Notes under the pieces: generated by a model
What the model saw: only the letters and a program-made list of their open reading frames with translations
The model's database searches: none
Told to the model about the DNA's origin: nothing
In this document: piece by piece, positions 2,098-49,660 of the stretch
Position numbering within the stretch: the first letter of the stretch is position 1
How the letters are laid out: each line of letters starts with the position of its first letter
Translations under genes and position numbers: made by a program
Source: Acidimicrobiia bacterium UBA5794
GTDB lineage: Bacteria; Actinomycetota; Acidimicrobiia; Spongiisociales; UBA5794
Assembly (NCBI GenBank): GCA_002418265.1
Contig: DIDS01000014.1
Location: forward strand, 72,588 to 136,587
DNA length: 64,000 nt
Direction: 5' to 3'

Positions 2098-2489
2098 AAC
2101 CTGTTCCCCCTTCAGGGGGAACAGGCGAGTCTTCGAGCCATGGGTGCGTGCGAGCCTGCGAGCCCCGTCTCCCAGAGGGGAACAGGCGAGTCTCCGAGCC
2201 AAGGGACGGCCCCCCTGCGTCGCTAGCGCTCCGCGTCCCCCCGGCAGCCGGGGGGACGGGTAAGCACGCCAAGCCAAGGGGACGGGAAGAACCTCAACAC
2301 TGTTCCCCCTTCAGGGGGAACGGGCGAGTCTTCGAGCCATGGGGGCGTGCGAGCCTGCGAGCCCCGTCTCCCAGACGTCAGACGTCAGAAGCCCCCCTGC
2401 ACCTCGCTGCGCTCGGCGCGTCCCCCCGCAAGCGGGAGGACGGGAAGAAGAGCCCAACCCTGTTCCCCCTTCAGGGGGACGGTGTGGGC
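2098..2489. repeat. Roughly 200-bp unit tandemly duplicated (about 2.2 copies), carrying three perfect hairpins (CTGTTCCCCC-TTCA-GGGGGAACAG) and two copies of a GC-rich hairpin module; fills the convergent gap between the regulator and acnA
   Basis: Direct repeats at about 2103-2176 and about 2301-2376, with a third hairpin at about 2461-2484. Module variants lie at about 2211-2268 and 2391-2450. No coding potential. Confidence 0.8.
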
Positions 2490-5161
2490 TATTCGGCCAT
2501 TTGGCGGAGGACCATGTGGAGGATGCCGCCGTGGCGGAGGTAGTCGACCTCGATTGGGGTATCGCAGCGCGCTGTAGCGACGAACTCAATGACCGTTCCA
2601 TCTGGCTTGGTCGCGGTCACCGTGATCTCCTGGCGAGGTACCAGCGAATCATCCACGGCGATATCGAAGGTCTCGGTGCCGTCCAGACCGAGGGAATCGG
2701 CGCTCTCGCCTTCGGCAAAAGCCAACGGAAGCACACCCATCATCACGAGGTTGGATCGGTGAATCCGTTCATAGCTCTCAGCAATGACTGCCTTCACACC
2801 GAGGAGAAACGTTCCCTTGGCAGCCCAGTCGCGCGATGATCCCATGCCGTAGTCGACACCGGCGAGCACCACCAGCGGTGTTTGAGCCTCGGCATAGTTG
2901 ATGCTGGCGTCGTACACGGAACGGACCTCACCGTCGGTGAAGTCTGTGGTCCATCCTCCCTCGGTTCCGGGAGCGAGTTGGTTACGAACTCTGATGTTTG
3001 CGAATGTGCCTCGTGTCATGACGCGGTCGTTGCCGCGGCGCGATCCATACGAGTTGAACAGCCGTTGTTCGACTCCAGCATCGGTGAGGAACCGACCCGC
3101 TGGCGTGTCGAGGCCAATCGTTCCCGCGGGGCTGATGTGATCGGTCGTGATCGAATCACCAAGCTTGAGGAGAACCCTGGCTCCGGTGATCGGAAGGATC
3201 GGCACCGGATCCGGGCTGAGATCCTTGAAGAACGGCGGCTCCTGGATGTAGGTCGATTCGGGCTGCCAATCAAACAGTGCTCCACCGGTGACAGGGATCG
3301 CCCGCCATTGCGGAGATCCCTGAAAAACGGCCCCGTATTCGCGGGTGAATTGCTCAGTCTTGAGTGAGTCTTGGATCGTTGAGGCGATTTCTTCTTGCGC
3401 TGGCCAAATATCTCGCAGGTACACATCTTGACCGTGGTCATCGGTGCCGATGGGTTCGGTCGACAGGTCGATATCGACCGTTCCTGCAATGGCATACGCC
3501 ACAACGAGCGGTGGACTTGCCAGGTAGTTAGCCCGTACGTCGGGGCTGATACGTCCCTCGAAGTTTCGGTTTCCCGACAGAACCGAAACCGCCACAATGT
3601 CGTTGTCGTGGACCGCCTTGCTGATGGCCGGTGGAAGCGGACCCGAGTTGCCGATACAGGTCGTGCAACCATATCCGACGGTATAAAAGCCGAGGGCTTC
3701 GAGATCCTCCATCAAGCCCGACTTCGTGAGGTATTCGGTCACGACTTTCGAACCCGGTGCCAACGACGTCTTCACCCACGGTTTGCGGTGGAGGCCCCTC
3801 TCGCGAGCCTTTCGGGCAACGAGTCCCGCGCCAACCATGACCTCGGGGTTTGATGTGTTGGTGCAGGAGGTGATCGCAGCGATCACCACATCGCCGTCGG
3901 AGAGATCAAAGGTCGCACCCTCGCTCTCAACTCCGGTCGCCACACGGGGACCACCACCATCGGGGCGGAGCTGGCCATCAATGTCGACGTGCCACTGCTG
4001 TTTCATCCGTGTCAATTCGATCCGATCCTGCGGACGCTTGGGACCAGCGAGAGACGCCACGACCGTCGACATGTCGAGTTCGAGGCTCGAGCTGTAGGTG
4101 ATCTCACGAGAGTCCTCACGCCACATGCCCTGCATCTTGTAGTACTGCTCAACGGTCGCAATGAGTTCCTCTGACCGTCCTGACAAACGCATGTAGTCGA
4201 GCGTGCGTTCATCAACAGGGAAGAACCCGATCGTGGCGCCATACTCGGGTGCCATGTTCGCAATGGTTGCTCGATTCGCAACGGGCATCTCCGACAGACC
4301 AGGCCCGTAGAACTCGACGAACTTCCCGACCACACCGTGGGCGCGAAGCATCTCGGTGACAACGAGGACCAAGTCGGTCGCTGTCGTTCCATCGGGTAGG
4401 GCTCCCGTCAGTTTGAACCCGACCACTTCCGGAAGCAGCATGTAGATCGGCTGACCAACCATCACCGCTTCAGCTTCGATCCCCCCGACTCCCCATCCCA
4501 CGACACCAAGACCGTTGATCATGGTTGTGTGGCTGTCTGTTCCGACGAGTGAATCCGGGTACAGGGTTCCATTGCTGTCCCACACAACCTTGGCAAGGTA
4601 TTCGAGGTTGACCTGATGAACAATGCCGGTGGCTGGGGGAACAACCGAGAAGTTGTCGAATGCCGATTGTCCCCACTTGAGGAACTCGTAACGTTCACGG
4701 TTTCGTTCGAACTCGAGGTCAGAGTTGATACCGAGTGCATCAGGGGTGTTGAAGGCATCGACCTGGACCGAATGGTCTATCACCAGATCAACAGGCACCA
4801 GAGGGTTGACTTTGTCCGCAGCCGATTCGTCGCCAGTCATCTGAACGATTGCAGAGCGCATTGCAGCGAGATCCACGACGGATGGGACACCTGTGAAGTC
4901 CTGAAGGACGACTCGTCCAGGCTTGAAGGCGATCTCGTTGATCCCAACCTTCGAGGCGTCATATTGGGCAACTGCGGTGACGTCTTCATCACGAACCACG
5001 CGTCCGTCGTGGTTGCGAAGAACGGATTCGAGCAGCACCTTGATCGAGTACGGCAGGGCATCGATATCGCCCATGTCCTTGAGTGCATCGAGGCGATAGA
5101 TGGTTCGCTCACCGAGTGGTGTGTCGATGGTTGCTTTGGCTGAAAAAGGGTCGTGGCTCAC
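2489..5161 (-). CDS. acnA: Aconitate hydratase A
   Basis: About 890-aa aconitase with typical motifs ([20 protein letters not shown], Fe-S ligand region CTNTSNP). Start GTG at 5161 (VSHDPFSAK...) with a GGAAGAGGA SD. Confidence 0.9.
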
Positions 5162-5358
5162 TGTGTCCTCTTCCGGTTGTGTGTGCGGTGTGTGTTCAGC
5201 TTGTAAGACTAGGGGGCACTTGCGGACGAATTTGGGGGACAAGAAAACGCGATGTTTCGTCTTTCGCGAACTCTTGTGAACTTCCTTTCGACCTGGGGTT
5301 CGAAACAACGCAGGGCAAGTTGGTTTCCACCTATCCGGAGAGCGGTCCTACCGTTGCA

Positions 5359-5871
5359 ATGATGAGAGCTCGATCAATCCGGACCCTGCTGCTGCTCGCC
5401 GCTGTGGTTGTGATCGTGTCGGCATGCAACTCAAGTGTTGCTGACGAAACCAGCGATCTTGAGCTTGCTCCGGATTTCGTGGTACCTACGGCTGACGGCG
5501 GAATGTTCAGCGTTGACGATCACATCGCAACGGATGGTCGACCGATTTTCTTGAACCTGTGGGCATCGTGGTGCTTCCCGTGTAGGGAGGAGATGCCTGC
5601 AATCGATGAGGCATCAAAGCTCAATCCGGATGTCGCTTTTATCGGCGTTTCCGTCCAGGACAGGACTGCAGATGCGATCTCGTTCCTTGACGAAGTCCAG
5701 GTGTCGTACACGATTGGGTTCGATGAGGACGGGACCGTCGACGGCGAGTATCAACCACTCGGACTCCCGGCCTCGTACATCATCTCAAGTGAGGGCGTGA
5801 TCCTTGAACGGATCTTCGGAAAAGTCACCGTTGACGACATTGCAGAGAAGTTCTCAAACCACTTCGGGTAA
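5359..5871 (+). CDS. TlpA/ResA-like thiol-disulfide oxidoreductase (thioredoxin fold), lipoprotein
   Basis: Lipobox VIVSAC, redox motif WCFPC, and redoxin fold. Start MMRARS at 5359. Confidence 0.75.
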   Translation: MMRARSIRTLLLLAAVVVIVSACNSSVADETSDLELAPDFVVPTADGGMFSVDDHIATDGRPIFLNLWASWCFPCREEMPAIDEASKLNPDVAFIGVSVQDRTADAISFLDEVQVSYTIGFDEDGTVDGEYQPLGLPASYIISSEGVILERIFGKVTVDDIAEKFSNHFG

Positions 5872-5911
5872 TCGCTGACATCGGACGAGCGCGTCACCTC
5901 GTTGCGGTAGC

Positions 5912-6631
5912 GTGGTGAGTTCGAACGACAGGTGGGACCACGTGACAACGAAGGCGCGACCGACATGGAAGGATGGACTGCGAGATGTCTCCCCCGTCAT
6001 CATCGGTCTCGCCCCGTTTGGACTGATATTCGGGGTCACCGCCGCGGCCGCTGATGTGGACCAACTCGCTGCATGGGCATCTTCCTTCATCGTATTCGCC
6101 GGAGCGAGCCAGCTTGCGATTGTGGAGGTCATGGGCACCGGTGGTGCCGCGATCACTGCGCTGTTCACGGCCATCGTCATCAACTCGCGACACCTCATGT
6201 ACTCAGCAGATATGGGGAGATACACATCGGATCTGCCGATCGGGCTCCGGGCACGGATGGCCTACATCCTGACTGATCAGGCGTATGCCGTTACGGGCAC
6301 ACGGTTCCCCGATCCAAACCACACCGAAGGATTGCCTTCGTACTACTTCGGTGTTGCCCTCGGACTTTGGACGACGTGGCAGATCACAACGACGGCGGGG
6401 TTCCTTCTTGGACAAGCCATCCCTCCCGAATGGAGACTTGAATTCGCGGTCCCCATGGTGTTCCTTGCGCTGCTCGTCTTCTCCGTCAAATCAATTCCAG
6501 GCGTCCTTGCCGCCGTCGTCGGAGGAACTGTTGCGCTCGCAACGATGCATCTGGACTATCAACTTGGCCTTATGTGTGGCGCGGCAGCGGGTGTCCTCGC
6601 TGGCCTGATGTCGGAGCGTTGGTTCGTATGA
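5912..6631 (+). CDS. azlC: AzlC-family branched-chain amino acid exporter subunit
   Basis: Multi-TM protein with AzlC-like motifs (GLAPFGLIFGV..., NSRHLMYS). Confidence 0.7.
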   Translation: MVSSNDRWDHVTTKARPTWKDGLRDVSPVIIGLAPFGLIFGVTAAAADVDQLAAWASSFIVFAGASQLAIVEVMGTGGAAITALFTAIVINSRHLMYSADMGRYTSDLPIGLRARMAYILTDQAYAVTGTRFPDPNHTEGLPSYYFGVALGLWTTWQITTTAGFLLGQAIPPEWRLEFAVPMVFLALLVFSVKSIPGVLAAVVGGTVALATMHLDYQLGLMCGAAAGVLAGLMSERWFV

Positions 6632-6936
6632 CGATGTGGATCGTCGTCGTGCTCGCGGGCATCGCAACGTTTTCGATGCGGTTCGCCTTCATCGCGCTGT
6701 TTGGTCTCGTTGCTGTTCCCCCACTCCTCGAACGGGCCCTTCGCTATGTCGCCCCGGCAGTGTTGGCGGCACTCACGGTGCCGGCAATCATGGCACCCGA
6801 CAACGCCCTGGATCTGACCAACCCGTTCGTTCCTGCGGCAGTCATTGGCGGACTCGCTGCTTGGTTCACGAAGAGCATCGGTGCAGCGATCATCGTCGGG
6901 CTCCCTGCGCTTTGGCTGATCCTCTGGCTGACGTAG
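6628..6936 (+). CDS. azlD: AzlD-family small membrane protein, partner of AzlC
   Basis: About 100-aa hydrophobic protein immediately downstream with an ATGA overlap. Start at MTMWIVVV. Confidence 0.65.
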   Translation: MTMWIVVVLAGIATFSMRFAFIALFGLVAVPPLLERALRYVAPAVLAALTVPAIMAPDNALDLTNPFVPAAVIGGLAAWFTKSIGAAIIVGLPALWLILWLT

Positions 6937-6950
6937 TGCAAGAACACCGG

Positions 6951-7718: not shown

Positions 7719-7783
7719 ATTCGCTCCTTGGCTCGCCGTGCACAGCACGCTAGTCATTCATCGTCGGATCGAAGCGATGCAGA

Positions 7784-7812
7784 TGTCAGACGTCAGACGT
7801 CAGACGTCAGAT
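7784..7812. repeat. Heptamer tandem array (GTCAGAC)x4
   Basis: cagatgtcagacgtcagacgtcagacgtcagatc. Confidence 0.8.
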
Positions 7813-8372: not shown

Positions 8373-8416
8373 GGCTTCACGTTAGCCGTGGCATCACGTT
8401 CGGTACTGAACGCCTT

Positions 8417-8439
8417 AGTCTGACGTCGGACGTCTGACT
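8417..8439. repeat. Palindromic heptamer element (TCTGACG/GACGTCT) containing the stop codon of the upstream HD-domain gene
   Basis: agtctgacgtcggacgtctgactag. Confidence 0.7.
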
Positions 8440-12322: not shown

Positions 12323-12524
12323 TCCCAGTCGATCAACCAGAGGGTGCCGAGACCCGTATCGCGCCACCAGAGCTTCCATTTGTTTCCAGTCATTCGGTTG
12401 CTGTTGGGGGCAAACGCCGATACCCTGACCCTGTTGGTCGGCGATGCGCCGCGACCACCAAACCTGATCGGGCGGAATCCGGAACGGGTTGGTTCAGGAC
12501 ATAGAAGCGAGCACACGGAGTCAC

Positions 12525-13950: not shown

Positions 13951-13953
13951 TGC

Positions 13954-15039
13954 ATGGTTTATCTTGCTGAGCCCGAACATCTCGGTGATCTCCTCCCCAA
14001 CGAGCCCCGCTACCGCACGGACCAACTGACGGAATGGCTGTACCGACATCCGGTGCTCGATGCCTCCGCAATGACCAACCTCCCGGCATCGGTGCGCGAG
14101 TCCATCAGTTCCGATCTCTGGCCGTTCGAGCTCGTCATCGACCAGGTTGGTGACGGAGGAGAAACTCGGAAATGGCTGTTTCGATGTCACGACGGTTCCC
14201 AAATCGAGACGGTCCTGATGGGGTACTCGTCGAGAACGACGCTCTGTATCTCCTCCCAAGTTGGGTGCGCCATGGGGTGTACGTTCTGTGCGACCGGACA
14301 ATTCGGATTCGACCGGCATCTTTCGGCAGGCGAGATCGTCGCGCAGGTCGCGTACGCAAACGCGTACCTGGCGGCCACGCCGCTCCCCCGCAGCCCCGAA
14401 CGAGTCACGAATGTCGTGTTCATGGGCATGGGCGAGCCCCTCGCGAACTACACCCACACACGCGAATCGATCAGGCGAATGATTGAGATCATGGGAATGT
14501 CAGCGCGGTCGATCACCGTATCGACGGTGGGTTTCGTGCCGGGGATGAGAAGGCTGATCGAGGAGCCATGGCCGATGAACCTGGCCGTCAGTCTGCACTC
14601 GACCATCCCTTCCGAACGAACGAAGCTGGTACCCATCAACAAGCGCTATCCGATCGACGATGTCGTGGAGGCCGCCCACGACTACTACAAGGCAAAGGGA
14701 CGGCGCGTGTCGCTCGAATGGACGCTCATCGCAGGTGAGAACGATTCCGACGAAGAGGCGATTGGGCTTGCGCGCATCGCCAGAGAGATCCACGCCCACG
14801 TGAACGTGATCGCTTTGAACCCAACACCACTGAGCACCGATCGCCCACCCGATCGGGACCACGTCAGACGCTTTCTCGCAACACTTGCGCGAGAAGGCGC
14901 AAACGTGACGCTCCGAGACACCCGCGGCCAAGACATCGACGCCGCCTGCGGCCAACTCAGACTCCGAAACTCGCGTACCCAGGGTATGAACCCACCCTCA
15001 CGGTCGTTGTCAGCCCAAAGAACGGGCGAACTACGCTGA
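13954..15039 (+). CDS. rlmN: 23S rRNA (adenine2503-C2)/tRNA methyltransferase RlmN (radical SAM)
   Basis: CAMGCTFCATG radical-SAM motif, VFMGMGEPLANY, and a C-terminal ACGQL. The last roughly 22 codons are encoded by a half-copy of the palindromic repeat found at 32764-32818. Confidence 0.9.
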   Translation: MVYLAEPEHLGDLLPNEPRYRTDQLTEWLYRHPVLDASAMTNLPASVRESISSDLWPFELVIDQVGDGGETRKWLFRCHDGSQIETVLMGYSSRTTLCISSQVGCAMGCTFCATGQFGFDRHLSAGEIVAQVAYANAYLAATPLPRSPERVTNVVFMGMGEPLANYTHTRESIRRMIEIMGMSARSITVSTVGFVPGMRRLIEEPWPMNLAVSLHSTIPSERTKLVPINKRYPIDDVVEAAHDYYKAKGRRVSLEWTLIAGENDSDEEAIGLARIAREIHAHVNVIALNPTPLSTDRPPDRDHVRRFLATLAREGANVTLRDTRGQDIDAACGQLRLRNSRTQGMNPPSRSLSAQRTGELR

Positions 15040-25735: not shown

Positions 25736-25836
25736 GTCAGACGTCAGACGTCAGAGAGCCCCCCTGCCCCTCGCTGCGCTCGGCGCGTCCCCCCGCAAGC
25801 GGGAGGACGGGAAGAAGAAGTCAGACGTCAGAAACC
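25736..25836. repeat. Composite intergenic repeat: (GTCAGAC)x3, GC-rich hairpin module, (GTCAGAC)x2
   Basis: gtcagacgtcagacgtcagagAGCCCCCCTGCCCCTCGCTGCGCTCGGCGCGTCCCCCCGCAAGCGGGAGGACGGGAAGAAGaagtcagacgtcagaa; sits in the divergent LCP/typA promoter region. Confidence 0.8.
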
Positions 25837-25873
25837 AGCGAGCGAAGTGAGCTCTCCGCTCTACCCTCGCACC

Positions 25874-27694: not shown

Positions 27695-27706
27695 CCGCGC
27701 GACATC

Positions 27707-27812
27707 CGATGACCGATGACCGTACTCCGATGACCGTACTCTGAAATCAAGAGTCCAGCTCGTTGGACTCCACGTATCGGTTATCGGTAATCGGTAATCG
27801 GTAGTCGGACTT
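27707..27812. repeat. Long imperfect palindrome built from heptamer arrays (CCGATGA/CCGTACT on the left, ATCGGTT/ATCGGTA on the right) around a central hairpin; likely bidirectional terminator between typA and ppiC
   Basis: ccgatgaccgatgaccgtactccgatgaccgtactc...gagtccagctcgttggactc...tatcggttatcggtaatcggtaatcggtagtcgg. Confidence 0.7.
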
Positions 27813-32763: not shown

Positions 32764-32818
32764 CGCGTACCCAGGGTATGAACCCACCCTCACGGTCGGT
32801 TCATACCCTGGGTACGCG
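32764..32818. repeat. Perfect 20-bp-stem palindrome (loop 13 nt); a half-copy lies in the rlmN 3' end
   Basis: GCGTACCCAGGGTATGAACC-caccctcacggtc-GGTTCATACCCTGGGTACGC. The left arm plus loop recur at about 14973-15007. Confidence 0.85.
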
Positions 32819-32941: not shown

Positions 32942-33502
32942 ATGAGACCCGTGAGGATGACCATTGCGGTCGGATTCCTGGCGCTCGTCGCTACGGGATG
33001 TAGCGGTGGAGAAACCGTTGCCAGCACAACCACCACGACCGTTCCCTTCACAACAACATCGGTTGCGGCAACAACGTCGACAACCACATCAACCACAACG
33101 ACCACCACCGTGCCGCCAAGCCTTGGGGCCACGTCGACCATTTTCCGCGTCCAGCAGGATTTGGCTGCACTCGGCTTCTTTGATGGCCAGATTGATGGGA
33201 TAGCGGGTGAGGAGACACAAAAAGCTCTCAAGGCCTTCCAGACACAACAGGGCTTGGAGGCCGACGGCGAGTTCGGGCCAAAGACGGATGCGGCCCTCTA
33301 CCCGCTCCTGATGAAGAACAAGGCCTATGTCGAGAGCCTCCAGGAAGATCTGACCGAGGCAGGCTTGTACACCGGCCCAATCGATGGCAGCTATGGCAAG
33401 GGAACCAAGGCCGCCGTTGAGAAGCTCCAGGAATCCTGTGACATCGAAAAGACAGGGAACATCGATATCGCGACACGGATATGTCTCGACGAAGCGATTT
33501 AG
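32942..33502 (+). CDS. Lipoprotein with Thr-rich linker and two peptidoglycan-binding (PG_binding_1) domains
   Basis: Lipobox ATGC, and two repeats of ...LGF/LY.G.IDG..G..T..A...FQ... Confidence 0.7.
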   Translation: MRPVRMTIAVGFLALVATGCSGGETVASTTTTTVPFTTTSVAATTSTTTSTTTTTTVPPSLGATSTIFRVQQDLAALGFFDGQIDGIAGEETQKALKAFQTQQGLEADGEFGPKTDAALYPLLMKNKAYVESLQEDLTEAGLYTGPIDGSYGKGTKAAVEKLQESCDIEKTGNIDIATRICLDEAI

Positions 33503-33505: not shown

Positions 33506-33532
33506 TCTGACGTCTGACGTCTGAGATCAGAC
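33506..33532. repeat. Heptamer tandem array (TCTGACG)x3
   Basis: tctgacgtctgacgtctgagatcagac, immediately after the stop codon of the PG-binding lipoprotein. Confidence 0.8.
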
Positions 33533-33555: not shown

Positions 33556-34056
33556 ATGACCCTCACTGCGGAACTTATCAATGCGGTTACCTGGAAGATC
33601 CCGAACGCGCTTGCCCTTGTTGGTTCGCGATCAGATGACGAGTGGAATGGAATGACAACGTCTTGGATCACCCAGGTATCCCAAGACCCGATACTCATCG
33701 GAATCGGTGTCGATACTGTCGCAATCACGCACCGGCTCATCGCCGATGGAGGGAGCTTCACGGTCAACTTGTGGGATGCGGAAGATACGCGTCCGTTCGT
33801 GAAGTTCTCCAAGCCAGCGACAAAGGACGGAATGACACTCAACGGACTTGCGATCACCGAGGGGCAAACCGGGGCCCCGATCTTTGACGATGCCATTGCC
33901 TGGCTTGAATGCGTCGTGGTGAATCCGGTGCCTTGCGGCACCCATACGTTCTTCATCGGTGAGCTCGTCGCTGCCGGCATCAACGACGATGAGGCAAGAC
34001 CAGCCTCCATGGCAGACACTCGCATGAAGTACGGGGGGACGCGAAGAGGTCATTGA
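33556..34056 (+). CDS. Flavin reductase-like (FMN-binding split-barrel, RutF/HpaC family) protein
   Basis: Flavin_Reduct-like pattern (ALVGSRSDDEWNGMTTSWITQVSQDPILIGIGV...). Confidence 0.7.
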   Translation: MTLTAELINAVTWKIPNALALVGSRSDDEWNGMTTSWITQVSQDPILIGIGVDTVAITHRLIADGGSFTVNLWDAEDTRPFVKFSKPATKDGMTLNGLAITEGQTGAPIFDDAIAWLECVVVNPVPCGTHTFFIGELVAAGINDDEARPASMADTRMKYGGTRRGH

Positions 34057-34135
34057 TCAGAAGTCAGACGTCAGACGTCAGACGTCAGACGTCAGATGCT
34101 GTGAGCTGTGAGCCGTAAGCTGTGAGCAGCGAGTA
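34057..34135. repeat. Longest heptamer array: (GTCAGAC)x6 followed by (GCTGTGA/GCCGTAA)x5, upstream of aceE
   Basis: tcagaagtcagacgtcagacgtcagacgtcagacgtcagatgctgtgagctgtgagccgtaagctgtgagcagcgag. Confidence 0.85.
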
Positions 34136-34145
34136 AAGCGAGCCC

Positions 34146-36848
34146 ATGCCCCAACGCCCCATCTACATCGACGGATTCACCCATCAGCTCTTGGACGCCG
34201 ATCCTCCCGAGACCGACGAGTGGATCGCTGCCCTTGACGACATCATCTCGGTCGACGGTGAAACTCGTGCCCGCTACCTCATGGCACGCCTCACCGAGCA
34301 CAGCCGATTCCGCAACATCGGGGTACCCGGATCTGTCTCGACGCCGTACATCAACACCATCCCACCCGGAGCGGAGGCCAACTTCCCCGGTGATGCAGAT
34401 ATCGAGCGACGGATTCGGCGACTCATCCGGTGGAATGCCGCAGCCATGGTCATCAGGGCAAACAAGGCCGAAGACGGTATCGGAGGCCACCTGTCGACGT
34501 TCGCCTCCTCTGCAACGCTGTACGAGGTCGGTTTCAACCACTTCTTTCGCGGACACGCCGACGGCACTCCCGGTGACCACATCTATTTCCAGGGTCATGC
34601 CAACCCCGGTGTCTACGCCAGAGCCTTCCTTGAAGGACGTCTGAGCGAAGACCAGCTCGACCACTTCCGGCGTGAGATCAACGGAGGTATCTCAAGCTAT
34701 CCGCACCCGCGCCTGATGCCGGATTTCTGGGAATTCCCGACCGTCTCCATGGGATTGGGACCCATCAACTCGATCTACCACGCCCAGTTCCTCCGATACC
34801 TCGACAGTCGAGGTCTCGACGACACGAAGAAGTCCCGCGTGTGGGCGTTCCTCGGAGACGGCGAGACGGATGAGCCCGAAACACTCGGGTCGATCACCCT
34901 CGCCGGTATTGAAAAGCTCGACAACCTGACCTGGGTGGTCAACTGCAACCTCCAAAGACTTGACGGTCCCGTCCGGGGCAACGGGAAGATCATCCAGGAA
35001 CTCGAAGCGAACTTCCGCGGTGCGGGATGGAACGTCATCAAGGTCATCTGGGGTTCCGACTGGGACCCGATTCTCGCCCGTGACACCACGGGTGCACTCG
35101 TCGAGAAGATGAATGCAACGGTCGACGGTGAATACCAGCGGTTCAAGGCCGAATCGGGAGCGTACGTTCGTGAGAACTTCTTTGGGCCCGACCCCAGACT
35201 CCGGGCACTCGTCGAAGACATGACCGATGACGAGATCGGGGACCTCCGACGTGGTGGCCTCGACTACCGCAAGATCTACGCTGCATACCACTCGGCTACC
35301 GAGTTGCGGGGAGCACCAACCGTGATCCTCGCCAAGACCATCAAGGGCTGGACCCTGGGACCCGACATTGCTGGCAAGAACGCAACACATGCCATCAAGA
35401 AACTGACCGGAGAACAGCTCAAAGAACTGCGGGATCGGCTCATGCTCCACGATGAGATCCCTGACGAGGATCTCGAAGATGGGATCCCACCATTCGTCAT
35501 GTTCGAGGAGGGCTCTGTCGAGCAGCGGTACCTCATGGAGCGTCGGGAACACCTCAACGGACCCATACCGAAACGCGGTGTGCCGATCAGATCTCCCCTC
35601 GAGCTCCCGTCTCACGCCCCGTTCGCCGAATTCGAAAGCGGTTCGGGAGAGATCGAGATTTCCACCACCGGCGTATTCACTCGGCTCCTACGTAGCTTGA
35701 CCCGAGACAAGGCCTTCGGAAGCCGGGTCGTACCGATCATCCCCGATGAAGGACGCACCTTCGGTATGGATGCGTTGTTCAAAGAGATCAAGATCTACGC
35801 ACCCGAAGGGCAGCTCTACGAACCTGTCGACCACAACCTCATCCTGTCCTACAGAGAAGCCAAAGATGGCCAGATCCTTCAACAGGGCATCACCGAAGCT
35901 GGTGCGACCGCTTCGTGGATTGCTGCGGCAACTTCCTACTCAACGCGGGGAGTCCCCGTCGTTCCCTTCTTCTCGTTCTATTCGATGTTCGGTTTTCAGC
36001 GAGTTGGCGACTTGCTGTGGGGTGCTGCCGACGCTCGGGCCCGAGGGTTCCTTCTGGGAGCCACTGCAGGTCGCACGACACTTCTCGGTGAGGGACTCCA
36101 GCACCAGGACGGCCACAGCCATGTGCTTGCAAGCGTGGTTCCGACCTGTGAGGCATACGACCCGGCATTCGCATACGAAGTCGCAACGATCATTGAAAGC
36201 GGCCTGCATCGCATGTACGGCGACAACGACGACGTGTACTACTACCTCACGCTCTACAACGAGAACTACGTCCAGCCCGCCATGCCCGAGGGAAGCCGTC
36301 AGGGCATCATCGACGGGTTGTACCGCTTCGATGCCGGACCAGGTGGCGGTGACCATGCTGCGACGATCCTCTTCTCCGGTCCGAGCCAGGGTGCCGCTCG
36401 AGCGGCTCAGACAGAGCTTTCTGACCGGTTTGGCGTATCTGCCGAACTTTGGAGTGCCACCTCCTACAAGAAGTTGCGAGAGGAAGCTCTTGAGACCGAC
36501 CGATGGAATCGCCTCCACCCAACGCTTACACGGCGCGTCCCATTCGTGACCGAGCAGCTCAACACGTCCCGAGGTCCGATCGTTGCTGTCACCGACTACA
36601 TGCGCATCGTGCCTGATCAGATAGCACCGTATGTCCCAAGAACCTTCACGTCGTTGGGAACAGACGGCTTTGGACGAAGTGACACACGCGAGGCACTTCG
36701 GGATTTCTTCGAGACAGACATGCGCCACGTCGTCGTGGCAACACTGGCTTTGTTGGCCAAAGAGGACGCCATCTCTCCAAACGTTGTCTCTGAAGCGATC
36801 GCCGCATACGACATCGATCCGGACATCGCAGCACCCTGGACGCGGTAG
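34146..36848 (+). CDS. aceE: Pyruvate dehydrogenase E1 component (homodimeric AceE type)
   Basis: 900 aa with a ThDP-binding GDG...N motif region (FLGDGETDEPE) and AceE-type N-terminus. Confidence 0.9.
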   Translation: MPQRPIYIDGFTHQLLDADPPETDEWIAALDDIISVDGETRARYLMARLTEHSRFRNIGVPGSVSTPYINTIPPGAEANFPGDADIERRIRRLIRWNAAAMVIRANKAEDGIGGHLSTFASSATLYEVGFNHFFRGHADGTPGDHIYFQGHANPGVYARAFLEGRLSEDQLDHFRREINGGISSYPHPRLMPDFWEFPTVSMGLGPINSIYHAQFLRYLDSRGLDDTKKSRVWAFLGDGETDEPETLGSITLAGIEKLDNLTWVVNCNLQRLDGPVRGNGKIIQELEANFRGAGWNVIKVIWGSDWDPILARDTTGALVEKMNATVDGEYQRFKAESGAYVRENFFGPDPRLRALVEDMTDDEIGDLRRGGLDYRKIYAAYHSATELRGAPTVILAKTIKGWTLGPDIAGKNATHAIKKLTGEQLKELRDRLMLHDEIPDEDLEDGIPPFVMFEEGSVEQRYLMERREHLNGPIPKRGVPIRSPLELPSHAPFAEFESGSGEIEISTTGVFTRLLRSLTRDKAFGSRVVPIIPDEGRTFGMDALFKEIKIYAPEGQLYEPVDHNLILSYREAKDGQILQQGITEAGATASWIAAATSYSTRGVPVVPFFSFYSMFGFQRVGDLLWGAADARARGFLLGATAGRTTLLGEGLQHQDGHSHVLASVVPTCEAYDPAFAYEVATIIESGLHRMYGDNDDVYYYLTLYNENYVQPAMPEGSRQGIIDGLYRFDAGPGGGDHAATILFSGPSQGAARAAQTELSDRFGVSAELWSATSYKKLREEALETDRWNRLHPTLTRRVPFVTEQLNTSRGPIVAVTDYMRIVPDQIAPYVPRTFTSLGTDGFGRSDTREALRDFFETDMRHVVVATLALLAKEDAISPNVVSEAIAAYDIDPDIAAPWTR

Positions 36849-36855
36849 AAACGGA

Positions 36856-36890
36856 GCTCACAGCTAACAGCTGACAGCTTTCGGCTCCTT
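36856..36890. repeat. Heptamer tandem array (GCTCACA/GCTAACA/GCTGACA...)x5
   Basis: gctcacagctaacagctgacagctttcggctcctt. Confidence 0.7.
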
Positions 36891-38745: not shown

Positions 38746-38770
38746 GCCCCGGTCGGTTACGTGAGGAAAC

Positions 38771-38792
38771 GGGGGAGGCACATGCCTCCCCC
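38771..38792 (+). terminator. Intra-operon hairpin (9-bp G/C stem, 4-nt loop) between the SBP and permease genes; probable attenuator or mRNA-stabilising stem-loop
   Basis: GGGGGAGGC-acat-GCCTCCCCC. Confidence 0.5.
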
Positions 38793-38839
38793 GTCCTCTA
38801 TGCTCACCCTCCACCGACCGAAGGCATCGCTGCTTCACC

Positions 38840-41999: not shown

Positions 42000-42990
42000 C
42001 CAGCCGCTCATTGAGCTGACCGATCTGGTCAAGCAGTTCCCGGTCAGGGGTGGGGTCCTCCAGCGACAGGTCGCGACGGTCAATGCCGTCGCTGGTGTGA
42101 GCATGACGATCTCGCGCGGCGAGACCGTTGGGCTCGTCGGTGAGTCGGGATGCGGCAAATCCACCCTTGGCCGTTTGCTGACACGGCTGCTTGAACCGAC
42201 GTCAGGGAAAATCATCTTCGACGGCGCCGACATCACACACCTCCAAGGCAAGCAGCTCAAGCCGTTCCGGAAACGTGTCCAGATCATCTTCCAAGATCCG
42301 TACTCCTCCCTTGATCCACGGACCCAGGTCGGGAACTCGATCTCAGAGGGTCTCAAGCTCCACGGCATCGGGGACAAGGATGAACGGCGCGACCGAGTCA
42401 CCAAGATGCTCGAACTCGTGGGGCTTGAGGCACATCATGCGAGCCGATTCCCACACGAATTCTCTGGAGGACAACGTCAGCGGATCGGCATCGCGCGAGC
42501 TCTCATCCTCGAGCCCGATTTCGTTGTTGCTGACGAACCCGTGTCGGCGCTCGATGTCTCCGTCCAAGCCCAAGTCCTCAACCTGTTGAAGGAGTTACAG
42601 TCGGAGCTGGATCTGACACTGTTGTTCATCGCGCACAACCTCGCGGTGGTCGAGCACATCTCGGACCGTGTCGCCGTCATGTATCTGGGCAGAATTGCAG
42701 AAATCACCGACCGCGAGAGCCTCTACAAGAACCCGCTCCATCCCTACACCGAAGCATTGCTCTCTGCGATCCCGATCCCCGACCCCGATCGTCCCCGGAA
42801 TCGCACGATTCTCCAGGGCGAGGTGCCCTCCCCGATCGACCCACCATCGGGGTGCTTCTTCCATCCGCGGTGCCCGATCGCTGTCGAAGGTGTGTGCGAT
42901 GTCGAGGTACCCCAACTCGAGCAATCGACGACGAGCGCTGATCACCTCGCGGCCTGCCACGTCCGAACGGGCCGCCTGAGCCGGCTGTGA
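41992..42990 (+). CDS. ABC transporter ATP-binding protein (DppF/OppF-like)
   Basis: Walker [10 protein letters not shown], signature FSGGQRQR. The stop codon lies inside the first unit of the downstream heptamer array. Confidence 0.85.
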
Positions 42991-43020
42991 GCCGAAAGCT
43001 GTGAGCCGAAAGCTGAAATA
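42984..43020. repeat. 14-mer (two-heptamer) tandem array, (GCTGTGAGCCGAAA)x2 plus GCTGAAA
   Basis: gctgtgagccgaaagctgtgagccgaaagctgaaata. Confidence 0.8.
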
Positions 43021-43040
43021 GTTGGGCGCAGAGCGTCCGA

Positions 43041-43754: not shown

Positions 43755-44116
43755 GACTCGGCCTCTCCGTCTTCCTCATCCTGAGATGGAACTTCGGCGA
43801 CTGGTTCAGCCGTCCCGAAACCGACACGATTTGGATCTGAACCGCTCAGGTTGGTGTCCAACATCTCGGTAAAGCTGTTGCCGGCCTGTTTCAGATCATC
43901 CTTGATTCCCTGAAGATCATCTCTGGCGGTCTTGATCGGATCGGCTGCATCGTGCCACTCGCCGGAGATCTCCTCGACAAACTGGGAGGTTGCCTGACGA
44001 GCCTTGGAGAGCAGCTCCCCCATCTTGCGCGCAAACTCCGGCAGTCGGTCGGGTCCAAAGATGATCAGGATCACAACCACGATGGTCACGATCTCTGCGA
44101 AAGAAAGACTGCCCAT
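43751..44116 (-). CDS. tatA: Twin-arginine translocase subunit TatA/TatB family
   Basis: TM segment followed by an amphipathic helix (IVTIVVVILIIFGPDRLPEFARKMGELL). ATGA overlap with tatC. Confidence 0.75.
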   Translation of the reverse strand: MGSLSFAEIVTIVVVILIIFGPDRLPEFARKMGELLSKARQATSQFVEEISGEWHDAADPIKTARDDLQGIKDDLKQAGNSFTEMLDTNLSGSDPNRVGFGTAEPVAEVPSQDEEDGEAES

Positions 44117-44141
44117 TTGTGGAACGCTACAACGTTCCACG

Positions 44142-44275
44142 ACCTTCAGGGAGGCGTGCGAGCCAGCGAACCCCGTCAGTCCGACGTCGGAAAGCCCCCC
44201 TGCACCTCGCTGCGCTCGGCGCGTCCCCCCGCAAGCGGGAGGACGGATATGGGAGAAAGCTGAAAGCTCTCTAAC
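44142..44275. repeat. Composite repeat: GCGTGCGAGCC...CCCCGTC box, short GACGTC element, GC-rich hairpin module, (AGCTGAA)x2
   Basis: ggaggcgtgcgagccagcgaaccccgtcagtccgacgtcggaaAGCCCCCCTGCACCTCGCTGCGCTCGGCGCGTCCCCCCGCAAGCGGGAGGACGGatatgggagaaagctgaaagctctc. This is nearly the same arrangement as 2341-2452. Confidence 0.8.
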
Positions 44276-44840: not shown

Positions 44841-44883
44841 CTGTCCCCCGATGGGACCCGTTGAATCGCGTTTGAACTCCGGT

Positions 44884-45087
44884 TCAGTCACGTCGCGGCA
44901 GCACCCTGTAGAACAACACGGCGCAGATCGCCAAGCCGGTGGAAACGGCCGCGGCGGTCCAGCCGAGCTGCGGATCATGCGTCATGTACGCCTCAGCCGC
45001 GATCACGAGAAGGAACAGTTGGAGACTGACGATCAACACGACGAGAGCAAGGAGCGCAGTGCTTCCAGCCGACTTTCGTTTGGCCAT
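44884..45087 (-). CDS. Small two-TM membrane protein, unknown function
   Basis: 67-aa ORF whose ATG overlaps the Rieske gene stop (ATGA). Hydrophobic: LLALVVLIVSLQLFLLVIAAEAY. Confidence 0.35.
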   Translation of the reverse strand: MAKRKSAGSTALLALVVLIVSLQLFLLVIAAEAYMTHDPQLGWTAAAVSTGLAICAVLFYRVLPRRD

Positions 45088-45605
45088 CAGTGACTGCCTC
45101 CCGAAATGCCGACCGCCCATACCTCGCGGTCCCGAATGACCGTGTCGATACGGGTCAGCGGTCGTTCGGGTGGACCCGCTATCGCTTCACCCGCAACGCT
45201 GAAGAACCCTTCATGACAAGGACATTCGAACTCGAAGGTCTCGATGTCCCAGAACACCACACATCCGAGGTGCGTGCATTTCTGGCTGAAAGCAACGACC
45301 TCGTTGAGTTCGGTCCGGACGATGATTGCGGGATCCTTGTCCGTCGGGTACCGGAACAGTTTGCTTCGGCCCGGCGGGATGTCATCGATGGACATGATCA
45401 GTCTTTCAGGTCCGACGTTGGCCGGTCGAAGTGATGCTGCGAGAGCCATCAGTCCACCGCTTCCTGCAAGGGCAATGGACGCGTACGCCAAAAACCGCGT
45501 GAACTCTCGACGCGTGACCTCGTCTTCGCCCGCACTTTCATACGGAAAGTCCTTCTTCCATTGTGGATCGTCCACCGGTTGATCGGCTGTCGGCTGATCG
45601 GTCAC
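45087..45605 (-). CDS. Rieske [2Fe-2S] protein with twin-arginine signal / membrane anchor
   Basis: Box I CTHLGC and box II CPCHEG. Tat motif TRREFTRFLAY followed by a hydrophobic stretch. Best start is GTG at 45605 (GGAGGTGAT SD, 1 nt after the ferredoxin stop); the alternative ATGs at 45632 and 45656 overlap the ferredoxin gene. Confidence 0.8.
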   Translation of the reverse strand: MTDQPTADQPVDDPQWKKDFPYESAGEDEVTRREFTRFLAYASIALAGSGGLMALAASLRPANVGPERLIMSIDDIPPGRSKLFRYPTDKDPAIIVRTELNEVVAFSQKCTHLGCVVFWDIETFEFECPCHEGFFSVAGEAIAGPPERPLTRIDTVIRDREVWAVGISGGSH

Positions 45606-45606
45606 A

Positions 45607-46224
45607 TCACCTCCCAAGTCCGAAAGGATCATCTTGCCACTGGGTCGGTTTCTCACCGATCGTGATCATGACCGGTCCAGGCTCGCTGACCACGGCTGCA
45701 ACCTTTGTGCGTACGGTCTGGCGTCCGAATTGCCAATTCCGTACCAGCGTGCCAGTGCGCTTTGCTGAGAACTCCTCGTCGGATCCGTACCACAACGCCT
45801 CCGATGGACAGACGGACGCACACATCGGTTTCAACCCTTCGGAGGTGCGGTCGTAGCACATGTCGCATTTCATCATCTGGTCGAACGACGCAACGTACTT
45901 CGGGATGCCGAAAGGGCAGGCGTACACGCAGTTTGAGCACCCGATACATCGAGGCTTGAGGGAGGACTGGACGACACCAGACTCGTTCTGTTTGATTGCG
46001 TCAGCTGGGCACACCTCAGCACAGGTCGGGTCTTCACAATGCATGCACACGAGCGGGACGGTCTGTGTCGAAATCGCCCGATCAATCGTATCCAACTGGA
46101 TCAGGGAGACTCCGCGGTGGGTGTCACACTCGGCACAGGCAGCAACACAGGCACGACAGCCGATGCACCGGCTCTGATCGATGGCAAACACCGCCGTTGC
46201 CGGGTCATAGCCGCTTTGGATCAT
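45607..46224 (-). CDS. 4x[4Fe-4S] ferredoxin-type electron-transfer subunit (NrfC/HybA/DmsB-like)
   Basis: Four Cys clusters: [40 protein letters not shown] and CDMCYDR...CASVCP. No Tat signal and no TM segment. Confidence 0.85.
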
Positions 46225-48449
46225 TGGTCACCCTGCAACGTGAGGTCGCGGTCGTCGAGCAGGTCGCGGCGACCTGTGCCCTTCGCCACCTTGACGGCGC
46301 TGACCTTGTATTCCGGAATACCCGAGATCGGATCGATGGCACGTTGCGTCAGAAGATTTGCCGACTTGTCACTTGGCCAGTGATACGGGATGAAAACGGT
46401 ATCTGGTCGAATCGTCTCGACAACCTTTGCCGGAGCCACCATGGTTCCACGCCGCGAGGTGATGCGCACGATGTCGCCGTCGGTAACACCCAAATTGGTC
46501 GCAAGTAGGGGGTGCATCTCGCACAGGGGTTCGGGATACTGATCAACCAGTGCTCCGATCCTTCGAGTCTGTGTTCCCGACAGGTACTGGCTCACCACGC
46601 GCCCGGTCGTAAGGTACAGCGGGTAGTCCGAGTCAGGAACCTCGGCCGATTCGCGCCAAGGGGTCGGGATGAACTTCGCCCGCCCGTCCGGGTGGAAGAA
46701 CTTTCCTCCCTCATAGAGCCGTGGTGTTCCTGGATGTCCGATCTCGGGTGCAGGCCAGAACACACCCTGCTCCTTGACGACGCGATCCCACGTGATGCCG
46801 TAGTAGTCGGCAGTCCCGCCACGGGAGGCTCTCCTGAGTTCGTTGAAGATGTCTTCGGTTGTCTCGTAGTCAAAATACTGTTTGGCCCCCAGCCGATCGG
46901 CGATGTCGCAGATGATCTCCCAGTCCCGGCGAGCGTTGCCAGGCGGACTGACCGCAGCATTGATCTTGACGACCCGACCCTCAAGGGTCGTGACCGTACC
47001 TTCATCCTCCTCATGAAGCGAGCCCGGCAACACGACATCTGCGTGTTGGGCGGTCTCGGAGAGGAAGAAGTCGATGTTGACGTAGTAGTCGAGTTTCCCG
47101 AGCGCTTCTCGTGTGAAGTTGGCGTCGGGGAGCGAAACGAGCGGGTTGAAGCAGATCGACAGCAGACCCTTGATCCGACCCGCATGAATCTCATTCATGA
47201 TCTCCTGGGCCGTGAGACCCTTGCCGGGGAGCTGTGACTCTTCGATACCCCATACGTCGGCGATGAAGGCACGATCGTCCGGGTTCTCAATGTTGCGGTT
47301 GCCTGGCAACTGGTCGCATTTGTGGCCGTGCTCACGTCCACCCTGGCCATTGCCCTGTCCGGTGATCGTGCTCACGCCCGAGCCGGGTTTTCCATACTTG
47401 CCGGTCGCCAAGCCGAGATTGATGCATGCAAGAACGTTGTCGACACCCTTCGTGTGGTGTTCAATCCCACGTGCGTGCAGCAGCATCCCCGTCGCTGAGG
47501 TTCCCCAGATCTCGGCTGCTTCTTCGATTCTCGAAGCTGGCACCCCGGACACCCGCGCAGCCCAGTCAAGCGTTGCGCCCGACACGGCTGCTGCGGCCTC
47601 TTCGAAGCCGTTCGTATGGTTGTCGATGAAATCGTGATCGAGCCAATCGCGTTCAATGATGAGGTTGAACATGGCCGACAACACTGCGAGATCGGTACCC
47701 GGTCGGACGCCGAGAAATACGTCGGCGGTACGTGCGGCCGGGGTGACCCGGGGGTCCATGTAGATGAGCTTTGCGCCGTTGTCACGCGCACGCCAGATGT
47801 AGCTGGTTGTGATCGGTGCACATTCCGCGATGTTCGCCCCTGCCACGAACACGACATCGGTGAGAGGGATGTCTGACCAAGGGTTGGCAGCACGATCGAC
47901 GCCGAGCGCCTTCTTTCCAGCCGCACCCGCCGAGACCATGCACAAACGGCCGTTGTAGTCGAGGTTGGCCGTTCCGACGGCGACTCGTGCGAACTTGCCC
48001 ATGAGATACGATTTCTCGTTCGTGAGCGACACACCCGAAAGGACGGCGAAGGAGTCAGCCCCATGTTCGGCCTGGATCCGTTTGATCTCGGACGCGGTGC
48101 GGTCGAGTGCCGTTTCCCAGTTGATCTTCCTGAAGCCCCCAACCGCCGATTCGTCCCGCGCCAGTGGCTCGGTGAGTCGATCGGGATGGCTTCCTTGGAG
48201 ATACCTCTTCACCCCCTTGGGGCACAACTTGCCCTCGTTGAATGGGAAGTCGTATCGCGGTTCGAAACCGACGACCTTGTTGCCTGACACCTTCAACTTG
48301 ATGCCGCATTGCTGACCGCAGAAACAGCAATGCGTATCAACGACCTTGTCGATCTCGATCCCGGCGTCCCATCCCCCCGGTGGTGTACGGTTGAGATTCG
48401 GCCCATACGTGGCAATGAGCTGCTCTTCTGTGACGGGTGTCATCGCCAT
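46221..48449 (-). CDS. Molybdopterin (bis-MGD) oxidoreductase catalytic subunit, Nas/Nap-type nitrate-reductase-like, cytoplasmic
   Basis: N-terminal [4Fe-4S] motif [10 protein letters not shown]...GKLCPKG, Mo-ligand region [13 protein letters not shown], and [15 protein letters not shown]. The C-terminal MoCo-binding domain has [10 protein letters not shown]...IPYHW. No Tat signal. Start at MAMTPV (ATG 48449). Confidence 0.85.
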
Positions 48450-49498
48450 CAGCCGAACCCCCCAACCCGTGCCACTTGTGCCAATCCGACAACCCGACGC
48501 CTGCATTTGGGGCACACATCCTGATAGTGCTCTCCTGACTCGAACGAGTAGTCGAAGCCAACAGCAGGAAGCACCGCTTTGAGATCCTCCATCTGGAGAA
48601 CGCTTGCAAACCCTTCCCCGCATTGAATGCAGGTCTGCTCCCCGGTTGCCTCCGCAGCCTCCTTGTAGAACGACACCCCGATGTTTGCTGGTCGCTGGAA
48701 GATGTGGAAGAGCTTTCCGAACGGGATGTAGAGCAGCCCCAAAATGACCGTGAGGGCGTGCAGGTTCGTGATGAACGCGTAGAACTGTCCTCCCATCCAC
48801 AAACTGGATGCCGTCAGCATGAGCCCGGTGATCGATACCGCGAACAATCCGACCAAAGGTGCAAAGTCGGATGCCCGTTCGAGTGCAATAGCGCCGCGGT
48901 CACGCATCCGTCTGATCAAGAAAATCGCCACACCGGCGATGACGAGAAAGGCTGCGATGTTGAGCAGGTGGAACACCATGAAGCCGAAGAAGCCGCGCGA
49001 ATCGAATTGGATCGTTGCAAAGGGTCCGAGAAATGCTTCGTAGAGCCGTCCGCTCTCGTCCGCCGATTCGAAGTGGAGCCAACCGAACGTCAGGGGAAAC
49101 GTCACGAGCGCGGCGAGGACGCACCCCCAGAAAAGCAACTGGTGCGCAACCCACCTGACCTTGCTCCTCCCCGCGATGAAACGCTGCAGGAGGATGTTGT
49201 TGACCAGCTTTCCGACGAGGCCCACGGCATTTGACCCCCGTCGGCCTTTGGCCCGCATCGCCTCCCACCCGCGGCTGTTCAACATTGCCGTGGGAGGACG
49301 TCGAAGCCACACGATGTAGCGATACGCGGTCGCGAACACCGCAAGTACCGTTCCGAACAGATACGGGGCAAGTGCCGGATCGAACCATTGCAGACCACTC
49401 GAACCGATGTACACGCCAATGAGAACGAGGACCACCAGAATCGACCCAACGACGACCCCCCGTCGGTCGACTCTCGATGGTGTGGATGCAATCCCCAT
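48449..49498 (-). CDS. NarI-like (nitrate reductase gamma fold) membrane cytochrome b fused to a C-terminal CxxC...CxxC zinc-ribbon
   Basis: Five TM helices with conserved His residues, and C-terminal CIQCGEG...CPKCRRR. The stop overlaps the Mo-subunit start (TGATG). Start uncertain: ATG 49498, or GTG 49567, which would use the end of the repeat module as its SD. Confidence 0.7.
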
Positions 49499-49569
49499 GG
49501 AGAGAACCCTAGCTCTCAGCACCCAGCTCCCAAGCGGGAGTTGGTCCCCTTGTCCTTTGTCTCCCACAC

Positions 49570-49660
49570 CCGTCCTCCCGCTTGCGGGGGGACGCGAGGA
49601 GCGAAGCGACGATGCAGGGGGGGGCAGTCCGACTTCTGACTTCTGACTTCTGACTTCTGG
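49570..49660. repeat. GC-rich hairpin module (inverted orientation) plus (GACTTCT)x4 heptamer array
   Basis: ccgtcctcccgcttgcggggggacgcgaggagcgaagcgacgatgcaggggggggcagtccgacttctgacttctgacttctgacttctgg. Confidence 0.8.

Follow-up and report, generated by a model that had tools for sequence, protein, structure and literature searches.

The DNA analysed here is a 64,000-nucleotide stretch of contig DIDS01000014.1 (positions 72,588 to 136,587 of the forward strand) from Acidimicrobiia bacterium UBA5794. We refer to this whole stretch as the window and count coordinates from its first letter. The TypA it encodes is identical to a protein from an 'Acidimicrobiia bacterium' metagenome-assembled genome, GCA_027494075.1, where the gene sits on a 2.73-Mb contig (JAOSJN010000001.1). 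It carries five copies of a GC-rich, hairpin-forming module of about 55 nt, four of which had been noticed in a preliminary description made from the letters alone. We numbered the copies 1 (2390-2450), 2 (25757-25817), 3 (44192-44246) and 4 (49570-49626, a diverged variant), with the fifth copy at 2210-2259. Pfam assignments placed copy 1 and the fifth copy in a convergent gap between an HTH_20 protein and aconitase, and copy 2 in a divergent gap between LCP and TypA. Copy 3 lies in a tandem gap between an HPP protein (gene stop at 44271) and TatA (gene start at 44116), and copy 4 in a tandem gap between an M23/SLH protein and a membrane protein. The aconitase, LCP/TypA and TatA contexts first reported were thus recovered, whilst the gene then called 'NarI-like' encodes a membrane protein without a Pfam hit.

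The four described copies and the diverged fifth are real members of a family of short, non-coding, hairpin-forming intergenic repeats. A 28-nt core, GCGCGTCCCCCCGCAAGCGGGAGGACGG, matched without mismatch at 2416-2443, 25783-25810 and 44219-44246 on the forward strand and with one mismatch at 49570-49597 on the reverse strand, and so at all four copies; none is expected by chance, as judged from 100 shuffles. Repeat finding on the window also recovered the module as families. A profile built from the copies and run with nhmmer returned exactly five modules in the 64 kb, all of them intergenic. The additional one is the fifth copy, which lies in the described orientation on the forward strand and shares its gap with copy 1. 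The preliminary description had allowed that no further copies might exist, but besides this fifth copy dozens more were found in other genomes and metagenomes. The rival reading, in which no family exists and the copies stem from simple local duplication or from accidental GC-rich resemblance, might be suggested by the near identity of copies 1 to 3 and by a large hairpin almost devoid of covariation in Acidimicrobiia-type copies. It is refuted by the zero chance expectation, by flanks that are unrelated from copy to copy and by the compensatory changes seen in the dozens of copies elsewhere, and we give it practically no weight.

The larger hairpin of the module (P3) had been described as a 9-bp stem closed by a GCAA tetraloop. 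We found that its stem has 10 bp, CGTCCCCCCG/CGGGAGGACG, and closes on CAAG on the strand then described. On the opposite strand the loop reads G(CUUG)C, a recognised stable RNA tetraloop, and the C-A mismatch in the stem becomes a U-G wobble. Read 5' to 3' on that strand, the hairpin is CGTCCTCCCG-CTTG-CGGGGGGACG, with the G-T (G-U) wobble within it. The mismatches were strictly one-sided: on the described strand those in the C-run were C-A in 20 distinct hairpins and T-G in none, and read on the opposite strand the same pair in the Acidimicrobiia set was U-G in 18 copies and C-G in six. On this opposite strand, the order of parts is the 10-bp C/G-run hairpin, a helix of 3-5 bp (P2) capped by GA-GCGNAGC-GA, and a run of six G. 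The cap is a GNA mini-hairpin flanked by possible tandem G-A pairs, and its heptamer occurs on this strand in all five window copies (GCGCAGC in three, GCGAAGC in one and GCGCTAGC in one). The heptamer sits inside the conserved 11-mer of the module and corresponds to the d(GCGNAGC)/d(GCGNNAGC) mini-hairpin of Hirao and co-workers, an 'extraordinarily stable' DNA structure with a melting temperature of 70-76 C for any N (PMC13037366). That mini-hairpin is a structural motif and not a genetic element, and the natural cases cited are single-strand origins of phages and plasmids, not dispersed chromosomal repeats (PMC13037366). Because of the wobble asymmetry, the GCGNAGC mini-hairpin and the CUUG loop, we favour the strand opposite to that of the preliminary description, and each unit is predicted to fold best there (hereafter the folding strand). 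The structural account given earlier was incomplete, with one helix in place of two, and was drawn on the less favourable strand.

In copy 1 the C-run occupies 2392-2397, and the P2 arms at 2399-2403 and 2415-2419 enclose the 11-mer at 2404-2414, which bears the GCGCAGC mini-hairpin on the minus strand. P3 spans 2419-2442 and the purine tail is GAAGAAGA. The copy was described on the plus strand and folds better on the minus strand. The minus strand is also the folding strand of copy 2 (C-run 25759-25764, 11-mer 25771-25781, P3 25786-25809) and copy 3 (11-mer 44207-44217, P3 44222-44245). It is again the folding strand of the fifth copy, in which the C-run lies at 2210-2215, the loop has 12 nt (GCGCTAGC, 2220-2231; a GNNA-type mini-hairpin on the minus strand) and P3 is a perfect 11-bp stem at 2234-2258. 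Copy 4, described on the minus strand, folds better on the plus strand, with P3 at 49571-49594, the 11-mer GAGCGAAGCGA at 49599-49609 and the G-run at 49616-49623.

Support for both helices came from a metagenome scan with the 5' half of the module only (CCCCCCTGC, 1-3 nt, TCGCTNCGCTC), which returned at least 120 loci; GCGNAGC is present in this set by design of the search pattern. A C-rich hairpin followed within a few bases in 50 of the 107 distinct matches listed, compared with 0-3% at control offsets. As this hairpin was seen although it had not been selected, the search pattern did not itself create the two-hairpin architecture. The second helix, P2, is formed by the bases flanking the 11-mer and shows real covariation. 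Its innermost pair was Watson-Crick in 80 of the 110 matches listed (G-C 33, C-G 21, A-T 17, T-A 9), a set in which the 3' side of P2 was not selected by the pattern. Perfect P2 stems numbered 39 among the matches listed, whilst in 2000 shuffles they averaged 10.2 and never exceeded 19, and pairing collapsed once the partner was slid by 1-4 bases. In a gap-free alignment of the matches listed, the P2 closing pair was GC in 23, AU in 13, CG in five and UA in five. Double changes numbered 24, compared with 6.8 +/- 2.4 after shuffling (0 of 500 shuffles reached this value). In P3 the basal part, (G/T)TCCCCC...GGGGGA(C/A), is constant across the wider family and the distal pairs vary with compensation (CG, TA, GC, AT). 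Compensatory changes, which the earlier note had proposed to look for, thus occur in both hairpins, through the wider metagenome set. The Acidimicrobiia-type copies alone show almost no covariation: from them only the large hairpin is predicted, the 5-bp outer P2 receives weak support and this helix becomes clear only in the wider set.

Copies survive mainly just 3' of genes. This was counted with a rough gene caller based on third-position GC and restricted to instances flanked on either side by a called gene. By the caller, module gaps were tandem in 26 cases, convergent in 11 and divergent in none; the sole divergent case is window copy 2, after manual correction of the caller. Whichever its orientation, the module was closer to the stop of the upstream gene than to the start of the downstream gene. 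The same preference for convergent or unidirectional gaps near upstream 3' ends has been reported for repetitive extragenic palindromes (REPs; Di Nocera et al. 2013, PMC3733652).

Such a position would also suit a cis-acting structured RNA transcribed from the folding strand, be it a hairpin for 3' ends or for processing, a stabiliser of mRNA, a terminator lacking a U tract or a regulatory leader. The G-U wobble, the canonical G(CUUG)C tetraloop and the possible tandem G-A pairs all fall on one strand, both helices covary, copies lie close to the upstream stop codon and, in three of the five window copies, an adjacent gene has the folding strand as its sense strand. Against an RNA, both orientations were about equally common in tandem gaps (independent loci: about 10 with the folding strand sense and about 6 antisense); copy 4 is antisense to both of its neighbours. 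No U/T tract follows either hairpin. A classical intrinsic (Rho-independent) terminator was rejected on the same ground: the sequence after P3 is GGAAGAAG when one strand is read and CGCGCC/GAGCG when the other is, with no T run. The module also has no match in Rfam 15, another comparison the earlier note had suggested: there were no hits in the window at the gathering score and none at E <= 1 in four copy-rich loci. Orthologous positions are not conserved, and arrays clustered at contig ends suit selfish DNA better. We therefore regard an RNA element as unlikely.

The preliminary description had further proposed that the GGGAGGA end of copy 4 acts as a Shine-Dalgarno sequence for a GTG start. 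As a general role this was rejected: a start codon lies at a usable distance only for copies 3 and 4, two of the five. At copy 3 it would open a 4-codon open reading frame (ORF) only, and at copy 4 an ATG further downstream is no less plausible as the start. Neither the marine Acidimicrobiia subfamily nor the wider family showed a consistent start codon after the module.

We also searched one genome per species with the hairpin core. This gave many chance GC hairpins, plus the full module in three metagenome-assembled genomes (MAGs), where it includes the unselected 5' half and often heptamers. Two of these MAGs are labelled Acidimicrobiia/Acidimicrobiaceae and one Armatimonadetes, and at the DNA level they share only the repeats with the window. 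A contig of the latter, 'Armatimonadetes bacterium isolate ATM' (QQUL01; loci L006, L013, L027 and L042), is syntenic with the Acidimicrobiaceae MAG (L019), with 85-89% protein identity. All three carriers thus appear to be related Acidimicrobiia, the Armatimonadetes label being doubtful and that label or the binning probably wrong. In the Acidimicrobiaceae MAG the copies form regularly spaced clusters of alternating orientation, interspersed with other hairpins of the C-run type, and very many lie at the ends of contigs, as is typical of repeats whose high copy number disrupts assembly. Short contigs of the three MAGs often hold several copies, and the loci L020, L029 and L032 show alternation with regular spacing.

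Turnover is fast, with copies appearing, disappearing, becoming truncated and forming clusters. Four relatives (83-89% TypA identity) keep the LCP-typA gene arrangement with a shorter gap that has neither module nor arrays. In the closest relative found (93% TypA identity) the same gap holds different period-7 arrays, a further small hairpin of the C-run type and the module in a deleted form (L173, 20-45), in which AGCCCCCCTGC abuts AAGCGGGAGGACGG and the first C-run is joined directly to the P3 loop and 3' arm. The small helix and P3's 5' arm look as if they were lost through recombination between the two C-runs. Orthologous gaps of the related MAGs also differ, with one module versus two, or a module versus a bare heptamer array. 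Since gap content differs among relatives, the block is best seen as a lineage-specific, fast-changing insertion and not as a conserved regulatory site. From these comparisons the module does not appear to be a conserved regulator of its neighbour genes, and it would change little in the biology of acnA, typA and tatA.

Beyond these genomes, the largest subfamily among the metagenome matches listed (loops TAAA/TGAA) has the same wobble, the reverse-complement-like box described below and TTCA-type hairpins. Its contigs encode EF-G 88-94% identical to Acidimicrobiia or Actinomycetota MAG proteins. One metagenome contig carries a different hairpin, TCCCCCCTAT...ATAGGGGGGA, with a good second helix. 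The sigma-54 response regulator of this contig shares 72-77% identity with proteins of Citrifermentans, Geomonas and Geobacter, and the two-hairpin design thus appears to occur also in a Geobacteraceae-like genome. The G+C content of carrier loci runs from 45 to 72%, and in viral contigs the module is rare (three hits only).

The C-run end of the module is the end that meets heptamer repeats. A period-7 array abuts four of the five window copies, always at the C-run end and always in the same orientation; the fifth copy, at 2210, has none, and the claim that the module is always fused to heptamer arrays holds for the other four. Next to the C-run end lie (CAGACGT)n at 2372-2389 for copy 1, (GTCAGAC)3 at 25736-25756 for copy 2, the degenerate heptamers GTCCGAC GTCGGA at 44179-44191 for copy 3 and (GACTTCT)n at 49627-49663 for copy 4. 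Copy 2 has a second short array on its opposite side (25817-25833) and thus arrays on both sides. Counting copies outside the window as well, the C-run end abuts GTCRGAN in eight, four of them in the window.

Heptamers on both sides, as at copy 2 and in L042, are explained by the array and not by target duplication. The flanks of the five window copies share no direct repeat, so a target-site duplication, which the earlier note had advised looking for, is present at none of them, and the module flanks show no terminal inverted repeats beyond the internal hairpin. These results bear on a classical MITE (miniature transposable element with inverted repeats), a deletion derivative of an insertion sequence (IS) with terminal inverted repeats, moved by a DDE transposase. 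The module resembles one in being small, non-coding, multi-copy and intergenic, and its ends are weakly complementary (CCCCCC vs GGGAGG). With neither of the two hallmarks present and no related transposase gene in about 170 loci, the MITE label offered earlier does not hold in its strict sense, and we consider this origin very improbable. The sole link to an IS was a 21-mer, CCCCCCTGCGTCGCTGCGCTC, found right after the stop of an IstB-like gene (IS21 helper ATPase) in L053, L103, L115 and L164 and followed by TGTCCG-type repeats. The module's hairpins are absent there; we judged the IS21 link unrelated, the 21-mer probably belonging to a different element that shares the string. A literature search with the module's sequence strings returned only primers and vector sequence.

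The alternative label of the preliminary description, REP-like, fared better. It is borne out by the many dispersed intergenic copies, their absence from the relatives' gaps, the clusters, the placement near 3' ends and the hairpin covariation. The module is probably a dispersed repeat of the REP kind, or of the kind of bacterial interspersed mosaic elements (BIMEs), which folds strand-specifically and whose copies have multiplied between the genes of this Acidimicrobiia lineage. REPs are thought to spread through REP-associated tyrosine transposases (RAYTs). By analogy with REPs and Y1/HUH transposases, the units may spread or persist as folded single-stranded DNA on which an enzyme acts in trans. 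The heptamer arrays would then be either places where units prefer to land or by-products formed at the C-run end, and effects on transcripts, for example through 3'-end hairpins, would be secondary.

Several results weigh against this interpretation. All-against-all clustering of the ORFs of about 170 loci gave only ABC ATPases and syntenic housekeeping genes, with no recurrent transposase. The GTAG and CGTC superfamilies of REPs carry an unpaired tag; the module has no GTAG, and its CGTC is paired with GACG at the base of the stem. As neither a REP superfamily tag nor an enzyme was identified, we class the module as a REP in its working and leave it outside the named REP families. Among the window copies, units mostly stand singly and not as inverted doublets. 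Nearest-neighbour folding energies were no better than those of shuffles (z from -2.5 to +0.5), as the sequence is GC-rich; they are uninformative, and the case therefore rests on the covariation and the known motifs. The orientation of copies relative to local GC skew showed a trend only (19 vs 10 loci, p = 0.14). Finally, the 11-mer and the specific wobble are strongly conserved across lineages, which is compatible with a sequence-specific host function.

Such a function could be the binding of a nucleoid, topoisomerase or replication protein to the DNA, or a single-strand initiation or priming signal on the lagging-strand template. The 11-mer is conserved in sequence and not in structure alone, and the folding strand is the G-rich strand in four of the five window copies. 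GCGNAGC-type mini-hairpins are moreover found at the single-strand priming sites of phage G4 and RSF1010 ssiA (PMC13037366). Rapid gain and loss in close relatives and local clusters of many copies would, however, be unexpected for a required site; the GC-skew test was not significant and no candidate binding protein was identified. We think a host site of this type quite improbable.

The REP/BIME-like interpretation can be extended to a hitherto undescribed, strand-specific superfamily that crosses phyla, defined by a C-run hairpin with the conserved G-T wobble, a covarying GCGNAGC-capped helix and a G-run. A dedicated protein would read the folded single-stranded DNA and, acting at the C-run end, might seed or target the period-7 arrays; it could be a transposase or nuclease of single-stranded DNA, or a factor for replication or priming. 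We offer this extension tentatively and consider it rather doubtful.

Amongst known systems, REPs and BIMEs are the closest (PMC3733652; see also REPIN-RAYT). Like the module, they are imperfect palindromes, short and rich in GC, with numerous copies scattered outside genes. They share with it the clusters of alternating orientation seen in related genomes, fast turnover between relatives and a preference for convergent and tandem gaps near upstream 3' ends (PMC3733652). REPs of the CGTC type likewise have no known dedicated transposase. They differ in being a single hairpin of 20-40 nt, compared with about 55 nt, two helices, flanking C/G runs and a sequence-conserved second loop in the module. 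No RAYT link was shown for the module, there being no recurrent transposase near its copies in the loci clustered, and Acidimicrobiia are not among the REP hosts described in PMC3733652.

Also comparable are the 'multicopy nucleotide sequences' of Geobacter bemidjiensis, intergenic palindromes with GGGGAC...GTCCCC ends described without an assigned function or mechanism (Aklujkar et al. 2010, PMC2996986). That genome also has heptanucleotide arrays, [CAATTGA]n and [AACGTTG]n, and many of its intergenic regions hold several families (PMC2996986). Palindromes and heptamer arrays are thus common to both, and the one Geobacteraceae-like contig among our metagenome matches adds to the likeness. The consensus sequences differ from the module, and the strings of the module are absent from the paper's supplementary tables (PMC2996986).

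Heptamer arrays are known from cyanobacteria and, as the GGGAATC type, from Xanthomonas and Nostoc (PMC4692102), and as TAACTGA from Beggiatoaceae (PMC4679880). They too have a period of seven, are intergenic only and lie between the same genes in relatives with variable length and sequence, as here. The window differs in that several unrelated units coexist and in that arrays abut a hairpin module in a fixed orientation. In the literature searched we found no description of heptamer arrays in Acidimicrobiia.

A further, tentative likeness is to the ends of IS200/IS605 elements, which are single-strand transposon ends with hairpins that Y1 HUH transposases recognise, and to their miniature derivatives; it draws on established knowledge and does not imply homology. 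It is suggested by strand-specific imperfect hairpins, the lack of terminal inverted repeats and of target duplication, and one end that always abuts the same short sequence (GTCRGAN for the module) in one orientation. The difference is that no TnpA, TnpB or RAYT gene was found and that distinct left-end and right-end hairpins were not identified.

REP-like repeats are a familiar kind of 'junk' element in bacteria; the literature searched held no description of a family with this two-hairpin design. If our interpretation is correct, REP-like repeats reach the Acidimicrobiia, an abundant and almost uncultured class. The design would then invite a mechanistic test, with two covarying helices and the sequence-conserved loop of an ultra-stable mini-hairpin; the strand asymmetry would point to a folded single strand, and heptamer arrays join the module in one fixed orientation. 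On the practical side, the repeats break metagenome assemblies, many copies lying at contig ends, and they can serve as lineage markers, having exposed the probably mislabelled 'Armatimonadetes' MAG.

Copy 1 and the fifth copy belong to a more complex block. The 390-nt convergent gap between the HTH_20 and aconitase genes (2098-2488) is a mosaic of boxes, two modules and three hairpins with a TTCA loop, and looks like a BIME. Within it lies a 199-nt duplication, with 2101-2176 and 2300-2375 being 97% identical and containing a TTCA-loop hairpin and a GCGAG-rich box. The accessory box, CATGGGGGCGTGCGAGCCTGCGAGCCCCGTC, lies at 2338-2371, with other copies at 2139-2169 and 44147-44178; repeat finding gave the copies of this family as 2338-2382, 2139-2183 and 44147-44191. 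The upstream box of the earlier account is thus real, with three copies in the window where two had been listed. A reverse-complement-like box stands directly beside the module in the marine Acidimicrobiia subfamily. The accessory hairpin, CTGTTCCCCC-TTCA-GGGGGAACAG, occurs at 2101-2124, 2300-2323 and 2460-2483; compared with P3, its pairing is kept through two double changes (T-A for C-G).

Period-7 arrays are found elsewhere in the window as well, at 7780-7811, 8418-8438, 27706-27741, 27776-27808, 33506-33524, 34057-34127, 36855-36879, 42977-43015, 54220-54256 and 58623-58660. Unrelated units coexist (GTCAGAC, GACTTCT, CCGATGA, ATCGGTA, GCTGTGA, AGCTAAC and AGCTGAA), and many short intergenic regions are filled by them. 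In the relative with 93% TypA identity (L173, 1-303 and 2095-2187) the same two gaps hold period-7 arrays with the units AAAGCTG, AGAAGTC, AGCTTTC and GCTTTTG; array position and period are kept between the window and this relative and the unit sequence is not. Relatives at 83-89% TypA identity have no such arrays.

Some arrays are bordered by fragments of the module without a full copy, namely GGGGGGACGCG, GGGGGACGG, CGAAGCGATGCAG and CGAAGCGATTTAGG (34035-34046, 54203-54212, 7767-7782 and 33490-33500), which suggests decay or partial deletion of modules beside arrays. Solitary small helices in the opposite orientation, AGC-GAGCGAAGTGA-GCT and GC-GAGTAAAGCGA-GC, lie at 25836-25854 and 34127-34143, a short way upstream of where typA begins and of the start at 34146. 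The one on the typA side is conserved in the 93% relative (L173, about 252-270).

Two further hairpins were noted. A near-perfect palindrome with 25-bp arms, CGCGTACCCAGGGTATGAACCCACC / GGTCGGTTCATACCCTGGGTACGCG (32764-32818), represents a separate repeat family, with a related half copy at 14970-15024 and a match in a related Acidimicrobiia MAG (L001, 3970-4024). A hairpin similar in flavour to the module, with its G-rich arm first (ACGGGGGAGGC-ACAT-GCCTCCCCCGT, 38768-38795), lies between two genes on the same strand.

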